DNA from: an uncultured delta proteobacterium | Lineage (GTDB): Bacteria > Desulfobacterota > Binatia > UBA9968 | Length of the DNA: 64,000 nucleotides | Direction of reading: 5' to 3' | Assembly: GCA_963760795.1 (NCBI GenBank) | Contig: CAVXEP010000020.1 | Location: forward strand, 1 to 64,000 | Shown: in pieces, positions 2,047 through 58,637 of the stretch | How the letters are laid out: each line of letters opens with the position of its first letter | Position numbering within the stretch: the first letter of the stretch is position 1 | Notes under the pieces: model-generated | What the model saw: only the letters and a program-made list of their open reading frames with translations | Told to the model about the DNA's origin: nothing | Database searches by the model: none | Made by a program: the position numbers and the translations under genes

Positions 2047-3480
2047 TTAAGCCTGTAATACCCACGTGTCCTTGCTCCCTCCTCCCTGCGATGAGTTGAC
2101 CACCAAGGAGCCGGCTTTGAGTGCGACGCGAGTCAGTCCGCCGGGTAGCACGTAAATGTCGCTGCCGTAGAGCACATAGGGACGCAAATCGACATGGCGC
2201 CCAACGACGCGGCCATCGGCGATAACCGGCACCCGCGATAGACCCAACGTCGGCTGGGCGATATAGTTGCGCGGATTTTGTTGAATCCGTTGGGCAAACT
2301 CAGCACGTTCTGCTGGCGTCGCGTGAAGTCCTACGAGCATGCCGTAACCGCCCGATTCGTTGACCGCTTTGACGACTAATTTGTCCAGGTTGGCAAGCAC
2401 GTAGGAAAGTTCCTCGGGCTCGGCGCAAATATGGGTCGGCACGTTTGGGATCAGGATTTTTTCGCCGAGATAGTATTCGATGATCTTCGGCACATAGGCG
2501 TAGATCGACTTGTCGTCGGCGATGCCCGTCCCCGGCGCGTTGGCCAACGCCACGCGCCCTTTCTTATAAATCTCCATGAGCCCCGCCACTCCCAGTAACG
2601 AATCCGACCGGAAAGTTTGCGGGTCGAGAAAATCATCGTCGATGCGCCGGTACAGCACGTCAACCGGTTCGAAACCTTTGGTGGTGCGCATCATGATCCG
2701 GTTGTTGACTGCCACCAGATCGCGCCCCTCGACCAATTCGACGCCCATTTGTTGCGCCAAAAAAGAATGTTCGTAGTAGGCCGAATTATAAATCCCCGGA
2801 GTAAGCACGGCGACTTTGGGCGAGTCAACCGCCGCGGGAAAAGCGACTGGAGGGTCGATAGCAGGCGGCTGGGATATTCATCCACCGGCCGCACCCGCGA
2901 CGCCTCGAAGACCTGGGGAAAGGTCCGCTTCATGATCCGGCGGTTTTCCAGGACGTAAGACACGCCGGAGGGACAGCGCAAGTTATCTTCCAGGACGTAC
3001 AACTGGCCGTCGCGGTCGCGCACCAGATCGGTGCCGGTGATATGGCACCAAACCTTCTGGGGCGGATCTAACCCGACGCATTCTTTCCTAAAGGAGCGCG
3101 CCGATTGGATCAGATATTCCGGCACGACTTTGTCTTTGACGATTTTTTGTTGATGATAAATATCGTCGATGAATAAATTGAGGGCGTAGACCCGCTGTTT
3201 CAAGCCTTTTTCGATCCAATCCCACTCGGCGGCTTCGACGATTCGCGGTATGACATCGAATGGGAATATTTTTTCGGTGGCCGCGCTGTCGCTATAAACG
3301 TTAAACGTAATGCCGTTCTGCAACAGCAGGCTTTCGGCGGCCGCTTGGCGGGCGAAAAGCTCACCGTCCGGCAGCGACTCGATCCGCTCCTTCAGCAATC
3401 GAGCGCCCGAGCGCGGAGCGCTGCTCGGAGACGAACATCTCGTCATAGAAATCAGCGGTTTCGTAAAGTTCAAATTTCAT
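2047..3480 (-). CDS. Circularly permuted type-2 ATP-grasp protein (frameshifts near 3425 and 2820)
   Basis: Start [16 protein letters not shown] at 3480; [48 protein letters not shown] spread over ORFs 2691-3473 and 2047-2808. Confidence 0.9.
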
Positions 3481-48146: not shown

Positions 48147-49136
48147 ATGATCATCAAGGTGCTGATTGCTCTGAACCTGTTGTTGTTCGCTTCGAGCAAC
48201 GGATACACCGGACAAGCGTCGAGCGCGCCGCTTTCCATGCGCTTTCTCTACCCAAGCCTGAGCGGCACCTTCGCCGCGGCTTGGATCGCCAAGGAAACGG
48301 GATACTTTGCCGCGGAAAATCTCGACGTCGAACTGATTCGCGTCGGCGGCAGCACGCGCATCGTCGCGTCCATGGTCGGCGGCAGCGCGCCGATCATTCA
48401 TGCCGGCGCCTCCGCCAGCATGGCCGCCACCGTGGCGGGCAGCGATTCGGTGATCATCGGCTGCATGAGCACCAAGTCGCCGTTTCATCTGATCGCCCGT
48501 CCGGAGATCAAGCAACCCAGCGATCTAAAAGGCAAGCGCGCCGGCATCAGCGCTTTCGGCGCGACTTCTGATTTTCTCGTGCGGCTGGCGCTGCGCAGGT
48601 TCGGCTTGGAACCGGGCAAGGACGTGGCGATCTTGCCCACCGGCGGCGAGTCGGAAGCCTTCGCCGCATTGCAGGCGGGCAGCGTGCAGGTCGCCGCCTT
48701 GGCCTATCCCGCCTACATCCACGCAATGAAGATGGACATGAAAGAGTTGGTCAATTTTTCCGAGCTCGGTTTCGAAGCGGTAAACGCCGCGCTGGTCAGC
48801 ACCCGCTCCTATCTGGCCAACAATCGCGATCAATCCACCCGCTTCGTCCGCGCCCTCATCCGCGGCATGCACCGTTACGCCAGCGACAAAGAGTTCAGCA
48901 AAAAAGTCTTGAGCAAGTACTTTCGCACCACCGATAACGACGTGCTCGAAGCGAGCTGGAAAGATGTCGCGCCGCATCTGCTAAAAGTGCCGCGCCCATC
49001 GGCGAAAGCGATCCAGTTCATCATCGATGGCCAGTTCAAAGACAAAACCCCGCCGCCCAAAGCGGAAATGTTCGTCGACACCTCGATCGTCGATCAGCTC
49101 GAACGCAGCGGCTTTATCGATTCGGTGTACCGGTGA
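48147..49136 (+). CDS. ABC transporter substrate-binding protein, NMT1/TauA-like
   Basis: WIAKETGYF, DLKGKRAGIS, LERSGFIDSVY. Confidence 0.88.
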   Translation: MIIKVLIALNLLLFASSNGYTGQASSAPLSMRFLYPSLSGTFAAAWIAKETGYFAAENLDVELIRVGGSTRIVASMVGGSAPIIHAGASASMAATVAGSDSVIIGCMSTKSPFHLIARPEIKQPSDLKGKRAGISAFGATSDFLVRLALRRFGLEPGKDVAILPTGGESEAFAALQAGSVQVAALAYPAYIHAMKMDMKELVNFSELGFEAVNAALVSTRSYLANNRDQSTRFVRALIRGMHRYASDKEFSKKVLSKYFRTTDNDVLEASWKDVAPHLLKVPRPSAKAIQFIIDGQFKDKTPPPKAEMFVDTSIVDQLERSGFIDSVYR

Positions 49137-49316
49137 TGATTTGCCGCGTTAACTGCGCAACAGAGAAGGTCGTCGGGCAGGTTTCTCGCGCCGAAAATTA
49201 GGAACGAATCGGCTAATTCATCGCAGAGACGCCGAGGATGCCAGGGGGGAGAGGAATATACTCTCTGCGAACTCTGCGCCTCTGCGGTGAGTCTTTTCTG
49301 TCTCTAGTAATTGGCT

Positions 49317-49751
49317 CTAATTCTTCTTCCCCGGCTCAGCTTGATAACCCTGTTCTTTCCACTGATTAACCGGGCAAAACGTCGTGCTCTGAAAACCCAT
49401 CTCTTCGGCTAGCTTCGCAGCCTGCGAGCTTTGACGTCCACTGCCTCAGGTGAAGACAATGTAGGTGTCCTTGGCCAGTTTCTTTAGATGGCCGTCGAGT
49501 ACTTCGAGTGGAATATTGATCGCCCCGGGAATGGTTTCTTTCTGGAACTGCTCCGGCGCGCGCACGTCGATAATCAAGATTTTGCCGGCATCGAGTTCTT
49601 TCTTGAGCTCGTCGGCCGGTTTTGGCTTGGCGCCCACCGCCCAGTTGGTCTTGGGATCCACCGGGTAGCGCGGTTGCGCTTGGGCCGCGAACGAAAATGT
49701 TGTCCACAGGATGACCGTAAGCAAACCAACGACAGCTACTTGTGGCTTCAT
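49317..49751 (-). CDS. Exported rhodanese-domain selenoprotein (Sec at TGA 49446-49448)
   Basis: Signal peptide; IIDVR..IPGAINIP..IVFT-TGA-GSGRQSSQAAKLAEEMGF..WKEQGY; open to TAG 49317; SECIS-like hairpin at 49411-49430. Confidence 0.85.
49411..49430 (-). promoter_or_regulatory. Putative SECIS element
   Basis: AGCUCGCA-GGC-UGCGAAGCU hairpin; CAGGCTG begins 21 nt after the UGA. Confidence 0.75.
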
Positions 49752-49786
49752 ATCCGCTCCTTTCAAAGTCGTGCGAAATTATTTTT

Positions 49787-50308
49787 TCAACCGCGATCCG
49801 ACAATTCGAACGCCAGTGTTGCATAGCGCATGAAAACACCGCCGCGCGGTTCCGCCAGCGGACCGTTGGCGACCAGGCATGCGATCACATGCTTGGCGCC
49901 CGGCTGCGCTTTGGCGCTCACCTCAACGCGCTGCGACGCGTTGATGCCGACGATGGTTCCGGCCGGCCGCTCGATCTTGCCGTCGATCCAAATCTCGCCG
50001 TAGTTATCGACGTTGGTTTCGAAGAATACCCGGTAATCGCGCAACGCCACGCCGTTCACCTGCTCCGGCAGCTCGACGGCGATGCGATACCAAGCAAACG
50101 TGAAACCCTTGGAGATACTGCTGCGAATATTGGTGCAAACTGCCCAACCTGAATCATCGAAGTCCGCCAACCGCGGTGGCGCGGCCAATAGCTGCGCTGT
50201 AAGCCCTTCATTCGGCTGGCCCGGCACCAACCCGGGTCCAATGCGCCACTGCCCTTTGACCTTTCGACAATCCTCCGCACTATTCAAATCCAAAGCTATC
50301 CTCGGCAT
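49787..50308 (-). CDS. Hypothetical protein with galactose-binding/GH2 N-terminal-like jelly-roll domain
   Basis: FDDSGW, FAWYR, VDNYGEIWIDG motifs. Confidence 0.65.
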   Translation of the reverse strand: MPRIALDLNSAEDCRKVKGQWRIGPGLVPGQPNEGLTAQLLAAPPRLADFDDSGWAVCTNIRSSISKGFTFAWYRIAVELPEQVNGVALRDYRVFFETNVDNYGEIWIDGKIERPAGTIVGINASQRVEVSAKAQPGAKHVIACLVANGPLAEPRGGVFMRYATLAFELSDRG

Positions 50309-50354
50309 GCTTACCTCCTAAAAGTGAATGATTACCGTAATGCAAAATACTTTT

Positions 50355-50825
50355 TTCACCACGAAGTGTTCATGATCTTACGCTCGCCTACAGAATATGA
50401 AAATGGTTGGGATTCCCTCCATACGCGGTCTGCTTGACGCGTCGTTCCCGCGCACGCGGGAATCCAGGTTTGATCTGCGCCAAATTAGCCTGGATACCCG
50501 CTTTCGCGGGTATGACGGAACCAACGTTTCCTCTTCATTGTGGAGACCCTCACCTTACATGTATTTTCTAAGGAGGGGCACGAAGAACACGAAGGTTTCG
50601 GAGAATAATTATTCCGAACTTCGTGCTCTTCGTGTCCTTCGTGGTGAATACAATCTTGCTACTCTGCGCCATTACGACGGGCGTATACCATACGCCCCGA
50701 CAAACCTGAACGGTGCGTACAGCGCACCCTACGAAGACTTACCTTTGCGCCTTGGCGCCTTTGCGCGAGATATTCCGATTGCCTTGATTCTCTTTATGCG
50801 CCCTTTGCGTTCTTTGCGGCCAATC
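50355..50825. repeat. Large REP/MITE mosaic
   Basis: Segment 50371-50522 homologous to 56599-56750, nested between CACGAAG repeat units, plus GGGCGTATACCATACGCCC and GGTGCGTACAGCGCACCCTAC palindromes. Confidence 0.8.
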
Positions 50826-50854
50826 TTTCAGCTGCTTGCGCCGTCGCGCGCGCG

Positions 50855-52207
50855 TTAACCTCGGAGAATCTCCGTCAACGATCTTACGTTATCGACTTTT
50901 TCCAAACCCTCGATTAGCGCCAACGCGCGCTCAGCCGCTTCGGCGCTCAAGGTTTCGCGCGCGCACTCGGTAAACTTGCCTCTCAGCTCCGCTTCCGTCA
51001 TGGGAAATTCCGGACTGCCTTTGGAGTGCTGTGCCTCGCGAATATAGGTCTGGCCGCTTTTCGTGCGCAACGTCACCCGGCAGGGGCGGCCGCTCGGGTC
51101 GGTCTTTTTTAGATCATTGCCAAGATTCATCTGCACTCTTTCCGCCAGTTTCAACACATTCGCTTCGCGCACGGCGGCGTCGGTGAATGCATGTAACGAC
51201 ACTTTACCGTCGATCAGCGCCCGCGCCACCAGATAAGGCATGCAAAACTTTCCCTGGATGCTGGTTTGCGGCACTTTGAAAACGATGCGCTCGAAGGTGT
51301 GTTTGGCGACGTCGACGTCGATGCCCTCGACCATCTCCGCAGTCAAGCCGTGTTTGGCTCTGAATTCCAATATCGAATCGATCGCCTGATGCGTCAGCCC
51401 GCCGCAAGGATAAGGCTTGATGCGAATGCCGTCGCTGAGCAGCGCGTAGGACCGGCCCAACTCTTCTATGGGCTTCTCGTCGATCGGCGCACCGGAATGA
51501 AGCACTTTGTAGAAGCCAAAGCCCGATTCGATCGCTTTACCGTTGGCGGTGAAGCCGGATTGCGCCAGCTTGGCCGCGAGCACGCCGTTGCGCGCGCCGA
51601 GGCCGACATGCAACGGCTTGGTCATAGTGCCAAAGTTGGCCACCACACCGCCGGCCATCGATGCCGACATGCCGAGCGCCATTTCAATTTGGGCGGCGTT
51701 GAGCCCGAGCAGCTTGCCGCATGCCGCCGCGGCGCCGAAGGAACCCAGCGTGCTCGGCGCGTGCCAGCCGTCATGTTCGCTGTCGCGCAGCGAGTGCACG
51801 AGCTTTGCCGTGACCTCATAACCAACCGCATAGGCTTCGATGATTTGCCGGCCGCTGGCGCCGAGCGCTTCTCCCAGCGCAAAGGTGGCGGGAATGATCG
51901 GCGCCGTCGGCTGGCCCATCAGGGTAAAGCTGTGATCGAAATCCATCGCGTGCGCCGCCGTGCCGTTCGCCAGCGCCGCGTTGAGCGCGGAAGTTTTGAA
52001 TCTTTGCCCGATGACCGTGGTTTCTTCCTTGGCCTGTTCCTGACGTGCTATCTCGGCGCAAATTTTCGCGTCCTCTTCCTTGCTGCCGGCGAGCGCCACA
52101 CCGAGGCAATCGCGCACAGCGATCTTAGCGGTGGCAATCGCCGCCGCCGGTAGACTTTCATATTTCGCATTGGCGACGAACTGAGCGATCTTTGCGGTTA
52201 CGTCCAT
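50855..52207 (-). CDS. MmgE/PrpD family protein
   Basis: NGTAAHAMDFD, GWHAPSTLG, TMTKPLHVG, KPYPCG. Confidence 0.92.
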   Translation of the reverse strand: MDVTAKIAQFVANAKYESLPAAAIATAKIAVRDCLGVALAGSKEEDAKICAEIARQEQAKEETTVIGQRFKTSALNAALANGTAAHAMDFDHSFTLMGQPTAPIIPATFALGEALGASGRQIIEAYAVGYEVTAKLVHSLRDSEHDGWHAPSTLGSFGAAAACGKLLGLNAAQIEMALGMSASMAGGVVANFGTMTKPLHVGLGARNGVLAAKLAQSGFTANGKAIESGFGFYKVLHSGAPIDEKPIEELGRSYALLSDGIRIKPYPCGGLTHQAIDSILEFRAKHGLTAEMVEGIDVDVAKHTFERIVFKVPQTSIQGKFCMPYLVARALIDGKVSLHAFTDAAVREANVLKLAERVQMNLGNDLKKTDPSGRPCRVTLRTKSGQTYIREAQHSKGSPEFPMTEAELRGKFTECARETLSAEAAERALALIEGLEKVDNVRSLTEILRG

Positions 52208-52319
52208 ATCATTCTCCTCACTTTACTGGGAATTTCAGATTGCAGATTGCATATCTCAGACCCAAGCCAACTGCGCTCAGTCGCGACAACCCGCTGGGCG
52301 ACTATCCGTCATAAATCTT

Positions 52320-53375
52320 TTAACTGCCAAGAATCTTTCTCGCCTGCTCGACCACTTCGGGCGGCTGATTCAAAACTTCCTTGACCAACGCCTCCAAGTC
52401 TTCCCCCGCCGCATACTCCACATCCATGCGCGCGCGTTTCGCTTCGGCCAACAGCTCGGAGTCCTTCAAGACATTGCGAAAACTCTCGCGCAGCATTTTG
52501 ACTCGATCCGGAGGCGTTCCTGGCGTGACCAGCACCGGCCGGCCGAACTCGCCGCCGGATAACAGCGCCTGGGCGACGCGCCGCTTGGTGCTGGCGACTT
52601 TGAACTCATCCAAGATCTCATAAATCGTCGGCGCCTCGGCCGCGCGCGGGTCGCGCTTGCGGCCGGATTGGAGCACATGGAAATCGAAACTTTTCTTATG
52701 CCAGGAATTGAAAGGTTCCCGGCCAAAGTGCGACGCCAGCGTGTGCGCCCGGCAAGCGATCTCGCCTTTTTCCACTGCCAAGTCGGCGTCGCTGCCACCT
52801 TGATAGCCTGACACCGAATTGATCTTCGCGCCCACGGTCAGCTCCAGGATCCGCGCGATGATGTAATCCGAGCTGGTGGTGCCGGAGCCGCCGCAACTGG
52901 GCGGCTGCTTAGCTCTGACGATATCGCCGACGGTTTTAAGTCCGGTATCGGCGCGCATGTAAAACATGATCGAATCCTGCGACGCCGAACCGAGCCAGTG
53001 AAATTTCCTGAGGTCGAACTGCGCTTCCTTACGGCCGATGAGCTGTTCGATGTAAATGCTGTTGTTCGGCAAGAGCACATGCAGGCCGTCCGGCTTGGCC
53101 ACGCCGTAAACGTAATTAGTCGCGCTGATCGAGCCGGCGCCGGGCATGTTGTGGACGATTACGTTGGGATTACCGGGGATATACTTGCCCCAATAGCGGG
53201 CGATGAGCCGAGCCCAAGAATCGTAGAAATTTGCCGTCGCCGAACCGACCACGAATCTGAGCGTCTTGCCTTTGTAAAATGACTCGCTCTGCGCTTCGGC
53301 AATCGCCAGCGGGAACAAGATCGCCGCAGCCAGCAACAAACAAATGTGAATGAGAGACAGTTTCGCTTTGGTCAT
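52320..53375 (-). CDS. Tripartite tricarboxylate transporter (Bug/TctC-like) binding protein
   Basis: FYKGKTLRFVVG, YIPGNPNVIVHNMPGAGS, PGTPPDRVKMLR. Confidence 0.87.
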   Translation of the reverse strand: MTKAKLSLIHICLLLAAAILFPLAIAEAQSESFYKGKTLRFVVGSATANFYDSWARLIARYWGKYIPGNPNVIVHNMPGAGSISATNYVYGVAKPDGLHVLLPNNSIYIEQLIGRKEAQFDLRKFHWLGSASQDSIMFYMRADTGLKTVGDIVRAKQPPSCGGSGTTSSDYIIARILELTVGAKINSVSGYQGGSDADLAVEKGEIACRAHTLASHFGREPFNSWHKKSFDFHVLQSGRKRDPRAAEAPTIYEILDEFKVASTKRRVAQALLSGGEFGRPVLVTPGTPPDRVKMLRESFRNVLKDSELLAEAKRARMDVEYAAGEDLEALVKEVLNQPPEVVEQARKILGS

Positions 53376-53650
53376 GGCGACATTCACTCCGGTGGTCGTT
53401 GGGCACTCGCCGCTCCGCCACCCCAGGGCGTATGCCATACGCCTCTACAATCGGATTTCTTCCTTGGAATTTTTTTGCGCTTTTTGCTGCGGTTAATTAT
53501 CCAATTCCAAACTTCGTGTCCTTCGTGATCTTCGTGGTGAGATCAAGACTTCTCGTCCTGCCACGACTTGATCATAGTCTCGAAAGCGCGAGCCTAGTCG
53601 ATGTTCTAACGAGCTGTCAACTGACAATGCGTCGACGCGCAAGGCGTTTC

Positions 53651-55321
53651 ATGCTACCGATGAGCGGACATCCGCCACCCATCATGGAAAAAGCCTTCGC
53701 CCAACAATCACGCGCCAGCGTCGCGCGCAACGCCGGCATCGTCAGCCTCGCCGTCATGGCGAGCCGCGTGCTCGGTCTGGTGCGCGATCAGGTCTTCGCC
53801 GCCCTGTTCGGCGCCGGCTTGCAATACGACGCCTTTCTCACCGCCTTTCGCGTGCCCAACTTACTGCGCGACCTGCTCGCCGAAGGGGCGCTGTCATCGG
53901 CGTTCGTCACTACCTTCACGCAGACGCTGCAACAAAAAGGCAAAGACGAAGCGATTCGGCTGTCCAACCGCGTCGCCACGCTGATCGTCGCGTGCATCAC
54001 GGCGGTTTCTATCTTCGCGTGGATTTTTACTCCTGAGATTGTCCGACTGCTCGCGCCGGGATTCTACGCTGTGCCTGGGAAAGCCGAGCTCACCATTGAA
54101 TTGACGCGGGTCATGATGCCGTTTCTCTTGCTGATCGCCCTGGCGGCGCAAGCCATGGGCATGCTCAACGCGTTCAATATTTACGGCATGCCGGCGCTGG
54201 CTTCGGCGTTTTTCAATCTTGGCTCGATCATCGGCGGCTTGCTATTGGGTTATCTCATCGGACCGGCCATCGGCTTGAGCCCCATCGCCGGCATGGCTTA
54301 CGGCACAGTGATCGGCGGCTTTTTGCAGTTCGCCGTGCAATGGCCGAGCCTGCGCCGTTGCGGTGTCGGCTACCGGGCCGATTGGAATGTGAACGACTCG
54401 GGCGTGCGGCAGATTCTTCGGCTCATGGGACCGGCGATCATCGGCGCCGCCGCCGTGCAGATCAATGTTTTCGTCAACACCAGTTTCGCTTCGGCGATCG
54501 TCGATCCGGCCACCGGCGCGGTCGCCAACGGACCGGTGTCCTGGCTCAACTTCGCCTTTCGCTTCATGCAGTTTCCCATCGGCGTGTTCGGCGTCGCCAT
54601 CGCCACCGCCACCCTGCCGACGCTATCGCGCAGCACGACGAATCCGAATTTCGAAGAATTTCGCCAAACCCTGACGCACGCGCTGGCGCTGGTGTTTCTC
54701 CTATGCATCCCGTCGGCTGTCGGCCTGGCGGTGCTGGCCCATCCGATCGTCGCCCTGGTCTTCGAGCATGGCAAGTTCACCGCCTTCGACACCGCCCAGA
54801 CGGCCAACGCCTTGGCAGCCTACGCCGTCGGTCTGGCCGGCTACGGCGCCATTAAAGTTCTGTCACCGGCGTTCTACGCGCTCAACGACGCGCGCACACC
54901 GATGTTGATCAGCCTGGGATCGATCGCAGTGAATTACGTCATGAACTCACTGCTGGTCGGCCCCTTCGGCCACGTCGGTTTGGCATTTTCCACCTCGGCG
55001 GTGGCGTTGGTGAATTTTCTCCTGCTGGCGTTGTTAATGCGCCGCCGCTTGGGCCGCTTGGCCGGCCGCAAGCTCGCGGTCACCGCCGTGAAAATCGCGC
55101 TCGCCTCAGCGGCCCTCGCCGTCGTCGCATGGATCGTCAATGAAAGCGCCGGCGCCTTGCCGCTGCATGGTTTGGCACTGGAGTTCAGCCGCGTCATCGT
55201 AGCGATCGTCCTGGCCACCGCGACCTTTTACGGCGTCTGCCGACTGCTGCAAGTGGGCGAGTTGCAAGAAGCCATCGACGCCATCGGTGGCAAATTAATC
55301 CGCCGACTGCGGCGCAAGTAG
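53651..55321 (+). CDS. murJ: Lipid II flippase MurJ (start uncertain)
   Basis: SRVLGLVRD, AFRVPNLLRDLLAEGALSSAF, RFMQFPIGVFG. Confidence 0.94.
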   Translation: MLPMSGHPPPIMEKAFAQQSRASVARNAGIVSLAVMASRVLGLVRDQVFAALFGAGLQYDAFLTAFRVPNLLRDLLAEGALSSAFVTTFTQTLQQKGKDEAIRLSNRVATLIVACITAVSIFAWIFTPEIVRLLAPGFYAVPGKAELTIELTRVMMPFLLLIALAAQAMGMLNAFNIYGMPALASAFFNLGSIIGGLLLGYLIGPAIGLSPIAGMAYGTVIGGFLQFAVQWPSLRRCGVGYRADWNVNDSGVRQILRLMGPAIIGAAAVQINVFVNTSFASAIVDPATGAVANGPVSWLNFAFRFMQFPIGVFGVAIATATLPTLSRSTTNPNFEEFRQTLTHALALVFLLCIPSAVGLAVLAHPIVALVFEHGKFTAFDTAQTANALAAYAVGLAGYGAIKVLSPAFYALNDARTPMLISLGSIAVNYVMNSLLVGPFGHVGLAFSTSAVALVNFLLLALLMRRRLGRLAGRKLAVTAVKIALASAALAVVAWIVNESAGALPLHGLALEFSRVIVAIVLATATFYGVCRLLQVGELQEAIDAIGGKLIRRLRRK

Positions 55322-55448
55322 GTTCGCACCCTTTAGTAACTTATGACTAACCGCGGCAATGCGGATCGAGCACGAGCACGTCGTTAAAGCCGGCCATTGA
55401 CATCGTTGGCACCGCCATTTAACAATCCGCCCGAACCAAGGAGAGCTT

Positions 55449-55937
55449 ATGCCTAAAGTCACATCCCTCGGACATCTGGGTTTTCATGTGCGCGATATGG
55501 AACGCTCGGTGGCGTTCTACCGCGACATTCTCGGTTTAACCGTCAGCGACCGCAGCCCGCGCGGCGCCGTGTTCATGACCAGCCAAGATCGCAGCGTCGA
55601 GCACCACGAGCTCTACTTGGCGCCGGGGCGCGACGACGACGGCAAGGTCAACGTCTTGCAGCAGATTTCCTTCCGCTGTCCGACGTTGAAGGATGTCAAG
55701 GATTTCTATCAGCTATTCGTCGACAAGCAGGTGCCGATCAACCGCTGCGTCAGTCATGGCAACACCGTCAGCATCTACGCCAGCGACCCCGACGGCAACT
55801 CGGTGGAAGTCTACTGGCCGAGCGGCGTCGACGTGCCGCAACCCTTCGGCAAACCGATGGACTTGACCAAAAGCGAGGTGGAAATCCGCGAACAGCTCAA
55901 TCAGATCCTGACAGAGTGGCAAAACCAAACTTCATAA
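55449..55937 (+). CDS. VOC/glyoxalase family protein
   Basis: LGHLGFHVRD..FYRDILG, EHHEL, HGNTVSIY..DPDGNSVEVY. Confidence 0.9.
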   Translation: MPKVTSLGHLGFHVRDMERSVAFYRDILGLTVSDRSPRGAVFMTSQDRSVEHHELYLAPGRDDDGKVNVLQQISFRCPTLKDVKDFYQLFVDKQVPINRCVSHGNTVSIYASDPDGNSVEVYWPSGVDVPQPFGKPMDLTKSEVEIREQLNQILTEWQNQTS

Positions 55938-55993
55938 AACCCGCTCTCAAGAATAATTAACAATCGGCGAGCCCAGAAGTCATTGGAGACGTT

Positions 55994-56563
55994 ATGCCGC
56001 GTATTCCCTACGTTGACCCGGATAAAGTTACCGACCCAGAGATCAAGGGCTATCTGGAGCGCGCTCGCCGTGAAGGCACGCCGCGCCCTGAAAGCCAGGC
56101 CGTGCGAGCCAACGTCCCCGAGGTCATCCGCGCGTTCTCGCAGGCGTGGGAACTCACGTTCCGCAACGGCGTCGTCGACCACGCGCTCAAAGAGCTTTGC
56201 CGGGTTTACGTTTCGAAATCGATTGACTGTCAATATTGAGGCGTGCAGCGCTCCGTCCAGGCTGGACGGCAAGGGCTCATTGAAGCGAAGTATGATGAGT
56301 TGCTCAACTTCGCCGACTCGGACAAATTCACCGAGCGAGAAAAAGTCGCGCTAACCTACACCAGCGCGATCGCTTGGAACTCAGACATCGCCGACGACGC
56401 GCTCTGGGCAAAATTGCACCGACTTTTTTCGACTCCCGAGTTGGTCGAGCTCGGTTTTTTCATCGGCCTCACCCTCGGCCAACAGCGCTGGATCAAAACC
56501 CTCGGCATCGACCATGGCGCCGTACTCGGCGATACCACCGCCGGTCTCGCGCCGACGAACTAA
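55994..56563 (+). CDS. AhpD/CMD-like selenoprotein (CxxU; Sec at TGA 56237-56239)
   Basis: Two in-frame ORFs joined by TGT CAA TAT TGA GGC = C-Q-Y-U-G; FTEREKVAL and FSTPELVELG in the second half; SECIS-like hairpin at 56253-56269. Confidence 0.9.
56253..56269 (+). promoter_or_regulatory. Putative SECIS element
   Basis: CCGUCCA-GGC-UGGACGG perfect stem; CAGGCTG begins 18 nt after the UGA. Confidence 0.8.
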
Positions 56564-56598
56564 GCGGAGAAAAACATTCATCTCGCCACCGAATTGTC

Positions 56599-56870
56599 CA
56601 TGAACTTGCGCTCGCCTACAGAGCATGGAAATGGTTCGCATCCCAGAACATGCTCCCCTCGTCGATTCGTCATTCCGGCGCTCGCGGGAATCCAGGTTTG
56701 GTCGGCGCCCGATTAGCCTGGATACCCGCTTTCGCGGGTATGACGGAACCCAGGCGGCTCTTCGTCGTGCATCCCACTCCTGGATGCCGGCCTGGGCACG
56801 AATGACGAATTCGGAATGAATACCTCGGAGGCTTCGGTATCTTCATACTCTATACGAGCGCAAGCTCATG
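56599..56870. mobile_element. MITE-like non-autonomous element with ~32-bp imperfect TIRs
   Basis: Left CATGAACTTGCGCTCGCCTACAGAGCATGGAAAT vs reverse complement of right CATGAGCTTGCGCTCGTATAGAGTATGAAGAT; internal REP hairpins. Confidence 0.6.
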
Positions 56871-56947
56871 CAACCTTCGTGGTGCAACACTCTTTCCCAT
56901 TCGGTTGCGGCTGCGCCGCGCTGGGTACTTCGTGGTGAAAACCAATT

Positions 56948-58637
56948 TCACAAACGCTCACCGCCGACTGAGCGCGACCGTTCAGCGATTTGCGAAACAT
57001 CGTCCAGCGCATAAATCGCTAGCGCTTCGCGCCGGTTGCGCACGGTAAGTTCGTGGCGCGGCAGGCTGGCCGTGTTCAACCCCGACTGCTTGGCGACTTC
57101 TGCCGAGATCACCAACTGACAGTGAAACTCCTTGGTCGCATCTTGCAGCCGGCTGGCGACGTTGACCGTATCACCGATAGCGGTGACGTGAATCGTTTCG
57201 CCGTAGCCCATGCGCCCTACCACCGCCGGGCCGCAGTGAATGCCGATGCCAATGCGCAGTGGCGCGCTGAGTTCTTCTGCGAGTGCTCCGCTGAGCTCGT
57301 CGACCCGCTTAATCATCACCTGGGCAGCGGCGAGCGCTTGGCGGCAGCCTTCTTCGGGTCCGCTTTCGACGCCGAACAGCGCCATCACACCGTCACCGAC
57401 GAATTTGTCGATGATGCCGCCGCTCGAGACGATTGCCGCACCGACGGCGGTGAAATAGCTGTTCAAGAAAAACACTAAATCGTAAGGCAGTTTGGTTTCA
57501 GCGATGCCGGTAAACGAGCGAATATCCGCGAACATCACGGCGATCATGCGCTCCTGGCCGGCGAGATAGGCCGGTTGCCCATACCCCGCACTCGCCTGAG
57601 CATGGGGCGGCAGGAGCGGCGTCACCGTGAGATTATTCGTCGGCCGCAGCTGGCAGGCCAGTCGAACATCGGGCGCGGCGCCGACGCGCTGCAAGACTTT
57701 CAACTCGCCGGCAGCCGGCGGCGGCAAATTGGCAGCGCCATGAGTGACCCGCACCCGGCACGTCGAGCAGCGCCCGCGACCGCCGCAAACCGAAGCATGG
57801 GGGATCGCCGCTAGACGGCTCGCTTCGAGGACGGAGAAATTGCGCGGCGCCTGCACCTCCCGGCCATTGGGATACGTAATGCGGATGCGGCTGCGCCGCT
57901 CGATCAAGCTGCGCGCAACCGCGCGCTATGAGCGCCAAGACGATCGCCGCGCCGAACGTTATCAGCACGCCGTCATAGATCTGGTACAACACCGCTCGCT
58001 GGCTGCGCGGCGGCACTTTCGCAGCCACAAGGAAGCGCTCGAGCCATTCCGGCTGGCGCGCGATCAGGTTGGACACTTCCCGACCGGCACCGACGAAACC
58101 CAACAGCCCGCACACCGGGATAAGCAACGCCAGGGTGAGCAGGTAGGGCGCGATGCGCGGATACCATTTCTTCAATCGCAGCCAGTAGTGGCAGCCGATA
58201 CAGCCATGGGTCCAGGCGATGACAATCAGGATCGCCTGCTTCAATCCATCCATCGGCGCAGCATGCCAGAGGGTCAAAACCATCAAAGTGTAGGAATCGT
58301 CGACGCCAAAAAATTCATGGGTGAGCCGGGTGCCGACGATATGGATCGTCAGCAATAGCGGGATGGTCAAACCGAATAACAGTTGCAGCACCTCGGCCAC
58401 CGGCATGCGCCAATGGCGCCGCTGGTACAGCGCCCAAATCGCCAAGCCTAAGTGAGTCAATAACGCGCTGTAAAGAATCGCCGTGCCGACGGGATTGCGC
58501 CACAAAAGCAAAAACCAGCCACGCCCCCACTCCATCGCCGCCAACGAAATCAAGCCGAGCGCATGATTGAGCAAATGCGTCGACAAATAGGTGAGCAGAA
58601 TTAGCCCCGTAACCAAACGTGTGCGCCGAACGTTCAT
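56948..58637 (-). CDS. Membrane adenylate/guanylate cyclase with His-rich TM region and 2Fe-2S ferredoxin domain, CyaC-like (frameshift near 57915)
   Basis: THLLNH, HIVGTR, WTHGCIG; CGGRGRCSTC..RLACQ; FADIRSFT, DKFVGDGVMA, GDTVNVASRL. Confidence 0.88.

Follow-up and report, generated by a model that had tools for sequence, protein, structure and literature searches.

Do two unrelated genes that each carry an in-frame TGA followed by the same hairpin cap share a recoding signal peculiar to their lineage, or does each possess an ordinary signal of its own? This question is raised by a 64,000-nt stretch of DNA (hereafter, the window) from an uncultured delta proteobacterium of the Binatia lineage UBA9968. 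The window corresponds to positions 1 to 64,000 of contig CAVXEP010000020.1 (C20:1-64000) in the assembly GCA_963760795.1, which consists of 6.58 Mb in 35 contigs with 56-58% G+C and is 89% complete and 6% contaminated. A rhodanese-like gene on the minus strand and an AhpD-like gene on the plus strand, 7 kb apart, each contain a TGA followed by a GGC codon and a hairpin capped by the heptamer CAGGCTG. The initial annotation took this combination for a lineage-specific selenocysteine insertion sequence (SECIS) and proposed it as a tool to find new selenoprotein families. Our results favor a plainer reading: these are very probably two ordinary bacterial selenoprotein genes, each with its own canonical SECIS hairpin, and the shared apex reflects convergence on recognition by SelB. 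Its basis is the in-frame conserved TGAs, the conserved and covarying hairpins, and the complete selenocysteine (Sec) decoding machinery of the genome; by analogy, we infer that SelB binds both hairpins and that Sec is actually inserted at both UGAs.

Two intact genes across the TGA codons

On the plus strand, the TGA at 56237-56239 is directly followed by GGC, and CAGGCTG lies at 56258-56264, 18 nt past the TGA, between the arms CCGTC and GACGG. On the minus strand, the TGA at 49448-49446 is likewise followed by GGC, and CAGGCTG lies at 49424-49418, 21 nt past the TGA, between the arms TCG and CGA; the minus-strand stem is in fact longer (AGCUCGCA-GGC-UGCG(A)AGCU). The initial annotation had thus described the sequence correctly, including both TGAs, the GGC codons, the spacings and the caps. 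Both TGAs are in frame within open, domain-bearing genes, and two intact proteins (144 aa and 189 aa) result when TGA is read as Sec (U).

The minus-strand gene (49317..49751, Sec codon at 49446..49448) encodes a secreted rhodanese-like selenoprotein of 144 aa and ends with a TAG stop, as assigned from its translation, Pfam, paralogues and orthologues. The protein has a signal-peptide-like N-terminus and the active-site loop IVFT-U-GSGRQS, which is of the UxxG type (U-G-S-G). The Pfam Rhodanese domain (PF00581) covers residues 46-122 with U inside (E=8.3e-18), coding potential is found on both sides of the TGA, and two paralogues in the genome have Cys (TGT or TGC) aligned with it. The plus-strand gene (55994..56563, Sec codon at 56237..56239) encodes a CMD/AhpD-like selenoprotein of 189 aa followed by a TAA stop. 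The Pfam CMD domain (PF02627) matches residues 42-123, again with U inside, at 25.2 bits against a cut-off of 23, and the motif C-Q-Y-U at residues 79-82 is of the CxxU type.

We searched for both proteins in 123 genomes of the same order. The order-wide match counts include genomes flagged unpublished (G074, G052, G055 and G093), and no claim is made on these alone. For the rhodanese, the TGA was conserved in 21 orthologous rows, one of which (L087) comes from G052; this count leaves out the distant homologue L092 as well as L088, in which 1 nt is inserted. For the AhpD-like protein, 47 full-length matches at 73-99% identity were found in the order and all 47 had exactly one in-frame TGA, and nine further full-length matches at 53-58% identity had no stop. 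A scan of public metagenome-assembled genomes (MAGs) yielded 80 AhpD-like loci at 73-98% identity, with TGA at the site in 79; the site pattern was unmatched in the remaining one.

One rhodanese orthologue, L078 (G040:C68), reads CGA (Arg) at the TGA site with the hairpin intact. A recent change from Sec to Arg, an error in sequencing or inactivation of this copy could account for it.

Conservation of the hairpins

Hairpin energies were obtained by explicit hairpin enumeration in place of plain minimum free energy (MFE) folding. The AhpD-like hairpin (56243..56280, plus strand) has the core CCGUCCA-GGC-UGGACGG at 56253-56269, which begins 16 nt after the U of the UGA within the open reading frame (ORF) and forms a 7-bp stem of -18.5 kcal/mol; a lower stem possibly extends it to 56243-56280. 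Its apical loop GGC (56260-56262) is 23 nt from the U of the UGA (20 nt after the A). The rhodanese hairpin (49411..49430, minus strand) has an 8-bp stem with one bulge and an energy of -8.7 kcal/mol; its core begins 18 nt after the U, also within the ORF, and its apical loop GGC (49422-49420) is 26 nt from the U (23 nt after the A).

The 17-nt AhpD-like core CCGTCCAGGCTGGACGG was the same in all 29 loci of the order in which the site was located (30 loci were fetched, and the site pattern was unmatched in one). Third codon positions varied at 0/6 sites in this core and at 18/18 in its flanks. The 20-nt rhodanese core AGCTCGCAGGCTGCGAAGCT was the same in 21/21 orthologue rows, 20 of them distinct, and third codon positions varied at 0/6 sites in the core and 17/18 in the flanks. 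The hairpins also encode protein (S-V-Q-A-G-R in the AhpD-like gene and S-S-Q-A-A-K-L in the rhodanese gene), so that their codons are frozen, and these frozen synonymous sites make a clean case of dual coding constraint on a SECIS. L091, a rhodanese homologue with TGC at the site and internal stops, keeps S-S-Q-A-A by means of other codons and has no hairpin.

Changes in the more distant AhpD-like orthologues preserved the structure. The pair 18-32 changed from C-G to U-A in seven rows, and the pair 20-30 changed from U-A to C-G in two rows and to U-G in two. Overall, 97.7% of cells were paired, compared with 15-42% when partner columns were slid, and none of 500 shuffles matched the observed covariation score or percentage of pairing. 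Evolutionary upkeep of the structure is thus seen in the AhpD-like hairpin as retained pairing and two compensatory pairs, and in both hairpins as frozen synonymous sites. The top A-U pair of the AhpD-like hairpin was broken in 12 distinct alignment rows, and 11 MAG loci, mostly labelled Rokuibacteriota or Rokubacteria, had CAGGCCG with the TGA kept; the loop is therefore better written as AGGCY. Other loci had CAGGGTG, also with the TGA kept.

Sec decoding machinery and hairpins genome-wide

The genome has one tRNA-Sec gene (C13:190670-190764) and the genes selA (612 bits), selB (410 bits) and selD (379 bits), which are clustered on contig C11 and all score above their curated cut-offs. SelB has the full bacterial architecture (GTP_EFTU, D2, beta-barrel, and the winged helices SelB-wing_2 and SelB-wing_3). 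TGA is also an ordinary stop: it terminates 614 open frames that are 400 aa or longer. Together with the conserved TGAs, the frozen cores and the compensatory changes, this machinery bears out the earlier view that both elements are SECIS hairpins and that the TGAs are not errors.

The selD gene itself has one in-frame TGA. Its N-terminal part (C11, L009 about 2395-2450, minus strand) has the RLTQ start out of frame with the Sec motif G-U-A-A-K, just past four A's, and the Sec frame has another TGA nine codons upstream. This looks like a 1-nt assembly indel or a real frameshift.

We next collected selenoprotein genes in the whole genome. Candidates were taken from dicodon coding potential on both sides of an in-frame TGA, from within-genome BLAST with TGA translated as C, and from local protein context. 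A codon-usage filter for read-through ORFs was too weak, losing the rhodanese gene and selD, and was replaced by the dicodon scores. The BLAST comparison of paralogues gave many true selenoprotein pairs. It gave many false pairs as well, to which repeat elements and the conserved C-terminal stops of ABC substrate-binding proteins gave rise. Of 28 read-through ORFs compared with NCBIfam (some also with Pfam), 26 had a hidden Markov model (HMM) match spanning U. Adding the two window genes and SelD, the genome has at least 29 selenoprotein genes, nearly all of known families. A further list of 86 hairpin-filtered sites from 842 loosely coding candidates contained none that was selenoprotein-like by eye; since this list was judged by eye and not by HMM, 29 is a working count rather than a census. 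The earlier prediction of a large selenoproteome is nevertheless upheld by these at least 29 genes, which include five GrdB-family genes, GrdA, FdhA and SelD.

We then defined a hairpin class as having a loop of 3-7 nt at +19 to +27, a G in the first two loop positions and an energy of -7 kcal/mol or better. Such hairpins followed 26 of the 29 Sec-UGAs, compared with 81/600 true TGA stops and 366/1500 out-of-frame TGAs in long ORFs. For the subset with a GG loop, the numbers were 20/29, 36/600 and 179/1500, respectively. Given this difference from true stops and the invariance of both cores across orthologues, synonymous sites included, what is above chance is the hairpin and not the heptamer.

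Several results weigh against reading the two elements as canonical SECIS hairpins. Within the order, both hairpins are invariant, and covariation comes only from the more distant AhpD-like orthologues and from two pairs; none was seen for the rhodanese hairpin. In MFE folding of 64-nt pieces, the z-scores were -0.33 and +0.32, so that the hairpins are no thermodynamic outliers, and the MFE fold of the rhodanese piece favored another structure. An Rfam scan of 48500-57500 with E up to 10 gave no SECIS and only chance-level unrelated matches, with the bacterial SECIS models of Rfam left unchecked. As for the enrichment, the loop window and energy cut-off were chosen after the data had been seen, the 29 genes include paralogues (five GrdB-family, three UGSC, two GST-like and two Prx) and are thus not independent, and the candidates were chosen by eye from protein context with the hairpin data visible, so that the choice was not blind.

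Comparison with known SECIS elements and selenoprotein families

According to the accessible part of a 2026 review (PMC13188914), the bacterial SECIS consensus has a loop of 3-9 nt, a stem of 4-16 bp and a G at loop position 1 or 2. Most loops read N1 G[G|U] N N2, in which N1 pairs with N2, and the loop is located 16-37 nt from the UGA. Compared with this consensus, both window hairpins are situated within the coding sequence, directly downstream of the UGA, and have a GGC (or AGGCU) loop on a 7- or 8-bp stem. Their loops, A-GG-C-U closed by C-G, correspond to N1-G-G-N-N2, and the distances of 23 and 26 nt from the U fall within 16-37 nt.

The elements also resemble the SECIS of Escherichia coli K-12 fdhF (TGA CAC GGC CCA TCG GTT GCA GGT CTG CAC C), whose apex can be read as GCAGGTCTGC. 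The fdhF apex CAGGUCUG and the window heptamer CAGGCUG are one loop base apart: the loop is GGUC in fdhF and GGC (a triloop, or an AGGCU pentaloop) in the window. Another difference is that the window loops are 2 and 5 nt farther from the UGA. The 5' arm of the fdhF SECIS is described as having a bulged U, which neither window hairpin shows.

By analogy with E. coli, SelB with GTP and Sec-tRNA(Sec) would bind the GG apical loop via its C-terminal winged-helix domain. From a hairpin about 20-25 nt 3' of the UGA, it would deliver Sec to the UGA in the A site, competing with release factor 2. The products would be a UxxG-type rhodanese that is secreted or periplasmic, and a CxxU-type redox protein resembling CMD/AhpD.

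Rhodanese UxxG, AhpD-like CxxU and CMD-like CxxU proteins are all listed as known selenoprotein families in the accessible part of the review (PMC13188914). Like the rhodanese UxxG forms 2 and 4 described there, the window rhodanese has a single PF00581 domain with Sec in place of the active-site Cys, in the motif U-G-S-G; it differs from known rhodanese UxxG selenoproteins in its signal-peptide-like N-terminus and in scoring under the selenoprotein-specific models. Its scores were below the NCBIfam cut-offs for selenoprotein rhodaneses, at 34.2 against 115 bits for NF041203 (the rhodanese_LYCAU equivalog) and 16 against 805 for NF045694. The AhpD-like protein resembles the AhpD-like and CMD-like CxxU selenoproteins, as far as these are covered there, in having the CMD fold over U and CxxU where AhpD has CxxC. 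It was also under the curated cut-offs, at 55.7 against 310 for NF053654 ('YciW-related (seleno)protein') and 25.3 against 81.8 for TIGR01926, and hence forms a subfamily of its own; L018, another gene of this genome, comes nearer to NF053654 (162 bits). Because both window proteins fall below the specific NCBIfam selenoprotein cut-offs, we regard them as new subfamily members and not as those equivalogs.

Origin of the shared apex

The shared heptamer is best read as a coincidence under strong constraint. Loops in the SECIS elements of this genome include GGC, GGU, GGA, GGUC, GGAC, GGUCU, CGGGC, CGGGGC, GUG, GUU, GUC and others. GGN triloops occur in 12 of the 29, in about seven independent families (21 family pairs), and with about 144 apex combinations of the form pair-pair-GG-N, between 0.15 and 0.5 chance matches between families would be expected, a rough estimate of our own rather than a computed value.

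It is very unlikely, in our assessment, that UGA-GGC and the CAGGCUG-capped stem form a lineage-specific signature common to the selenoprotein genes of this organism and usable as a finder. The idea draws on the heptamer being in frame, at a similar spacing, in two genes that lack homology and lie 7 kb from each other on opposite strands, and on its invariance among the orthologues that each gene has in the order. Yet CAGGCUG caps only the two window elements among the 29 genome SECIS. The selD loop is CGGGC, the fdhA loop is GGUCU, and the five GrdB-family genes have C-GGC-G; absence of the heptamer after the UGA of selD and fdhA is what the initial annotation itself had named as grounds for giving the idea up. 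The exact motif is not enriched after TGA either: TGA-N18-CAGGCTG and TGA-N21-CAGGCTG each occur nine times in the genome, against 12.3 expected per spacing, and in the window the heptamer is at chance level (six copies against 6.8 expected). GGC, which had been counted as part of the signal, is a Gly codon that varies among orthologues (GGC, GGG, GGT, GGA and AGT follow the TGA), and loci with CAGGCCG or CAGGGTG keep the TGA. Nor is the signal confined to the lineage, as the AhpD-like hairpin is also present in MAGs that bear the labels of other phyla, the apex CAGGUCUG of E. coli fdhF is one base away, and both elements fit the general consensus (PMC13188914, in its accessible part).

The motif likewise failed as a finder of new families. 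Among 181 genomic sites of the form TGA-N(15-27)-CAGGCTG, 43 are in frame and three of these are flanked by three complementary pairs; among the 43, coding sequence on both sides is confined to the two window sites. A covariance model of the AhpD-like SECIS (R1) found only its own training site in the genome (E 3e-12), with three others at E above 4, and it missed the rhodanese SECIS at E up to 10, with 150 of about 3893 first-look candidates scored. An exact-sequence motif is thus the wrong finder, and Cys/Sec homology combined with a loose hairpin consensus works.

We give just as little credence to the idea that recombination carried the apex from one SECIS to the other or supplied it to both from a common module. 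An exact match of seven bases, read in one and the same frame (CAG GCU G, encoding Gln-Ala in both genes) within one 7-kb neighbourhood, would suit such an event, but the identity ends at the heptamer: the stems differ (CCGUC versus UCG plus AGC), the spacing is off by 3 nt and the proteins are unrelated. Moreover, model R1 shows no above-chance similarity between the two elements, the chance estimate given above also speaks against copying, and the occurrence of the AhpD-like hairpin in public MAGs suggests that it is as old as its own gene family.

Finally, that the TGAs are not Sec codons at all and represent sequencing errors, pseudogene stops, adjacent gene pairs or a variant genetic code has next to no probability, since, although the genome is an incomplete and partly contaminated MAG with likely errors at the selD N-terminus and at a second fdhA TGA, and the rhodanese orthologue L078 reads CGA, dozens of independent assemblies have TGA at the corresponding codon, Pfam domains run across it, paralogues have Cys at the rhodanese position, TGA serves as a normal stop for the 614 long open frames, and tRNA-Sec, selA, selB and selD are all present.

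With two ordinary selenoprotein genes as the preferred reading, the finding as first framed matters little. It represents standard bacterial Sec recoding in an uncultured lineage, in which two genes that normal gene callers would split at TGA are intact selenoproteins. Without a model of Sec, gene calling will cut about 30 genes short in these genomes. The parts that possibly deserve attention are the lineage-level selenoproteome and a MetE-like Sec protein.

Other selenoproteins of the genome

The 26 genes whose HMM match spans U encode five GrdB-family proteins (over the cut-off of TIGR01918), GrdA, a PrdB-like protein, three UGSC proteins, a SelL-related protein, an OsmC-related protein, FdhA, two further AhpD-like proteins, a second rhodanese, two Prx, three AhpC/TSA redoxins with W-U-x-x-C, two GST-like proteins, one Grx-like protein, one DsbA-like protein and a Meth_synt_2 (MetE-like) protein. 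The largest bacterial selenoproteomes have 57 and 63 genes, according to the accessible part of the review (PMC13188914); by these figures, about 30 genes is large but not exceptional. Our literature search on selenoproteins of Binatia/Binatota returned only unrelated papers.

This one genome contains five GrdB-family selenoprotein B paralogues together with GrdA, the PrdB-like protein and the three UGSC proteins, distributed over contigs C1, C4, C13, C20, C12, C7 and C16. The five GrdB-family SECIS have the common apex GC-GGC-GC at +21.

The fdhA gene lacks about 120 N-terminal model positions and has a second in-frame TGA (C10:56735-56737; L021:2650-2652) between the molybdopterin and C-terminal binding domains. 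No good hairpin follows it (the best is -5.4 kcal/mol), and nine matches in relatives (48-92% identity) show no stop there. An assembly error or a nonsense mutation specific to the strain is the probable source of the second TGA.

A CBS-pair protein (L039) and an adenylate cyclase (L030) were rejected, as no part of an HMM match lies over U in either; the cyclase domain covers residues 77-244 with U at residue 67. The adenylate/guanylate cyclase gene, still a candidate, has an upstream in-frame TGA (C20:161032-161034; L030:349-351) in the motif C-T-L-U. A hairpin with a CGGGC loop comes at +19 (-9.6 kcal/mol), and two paralogues have Cys at the U position.

A MetE-like Sec protein

The MetE-like gene (C30:170010-171113; L034:151-1254) encodes a cobalamin-independent methionine-synthase-like protein of 367 aa (Pfam Meth_synt_2). 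Its in-frame TGA (L034:871-873) is in the motif ALHL-U-RGNQGG (H-x-U), and eight paralogues in the same genome have Cys at the U position, which may correspond to a zinc-ligand Cys of MetE. Matches at 59-93% identity, of which the order has more than 50, each contain exactly one TGA, and paralogues at 40-47% have none. A GGU-loop hairpin at +22 is conserved along with the TGA in over 50 genomes of the order, with changes in the stem. The main text of the 2026 review (PMC13188914), as far as it is accessible, makes no mention of this family, and a full-text literature search gave nothing relevant. The protein could be an undescribed selenoprotein family.

Distribution of the AhpD-like gene

The lineage has its nearest named relatives in MAGs labelled Candidatus Binatia, 'delta proteobacterium' or Deltaproteobacteria. 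Copies of the AhpD-like gene with 74-83% identity also occur in MAGs under the labels Rokuibacteriota, Actinomycetota, Chloroflexota, Burkholderiales, Armatimonadota and Verrucomicrobiia, and these keep the TGA and a near-same hairpin. MAG labels and binning are possibly unreliable, and the distribution points to horizontal transfer of the gene with its SECIS or to mis-binned or mislabelled contigs. It suggests that the AhpD-like gene and its near-invariant SECIS travel jointly as one transferable unit. We tentatively consider it possible, though by no means likely, that the lineage is noteworthy even with ordinary SECIS in the window, by virtue of its at least 29 selenoproteins, a possible new MetE-like family and the transferable AhpD-like gene with its SECIS.

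Neighbouring genes and repeats

The rhodanese and AhpD-like selenoprotein genes share no operon. The genes between and around them have no relation to one another or to selenium: an NMT1-type binding protein (48147-49136), MmgE/PrpD (52207-50855, minus strand), a TctC-type receptor (53438-52320, minus strand), MurJ (53399-55321), a glyoxalase-fold protein (55449-55937) and a Fer2-cyclase (57907-56948, minus strand).

A dispersed repeat is located at about 56640-56700 (plus strand) in the window and also on C16, on C2 and at C20:50434, where it sits after gene ends. Its translation, ...FVIPA(L/H)AGIQV or WIPAFAGMT, gives spurious TGA-TGA alignments, and a second repeat with the translation EYWS.GV.E...HYS behaves in the same way.

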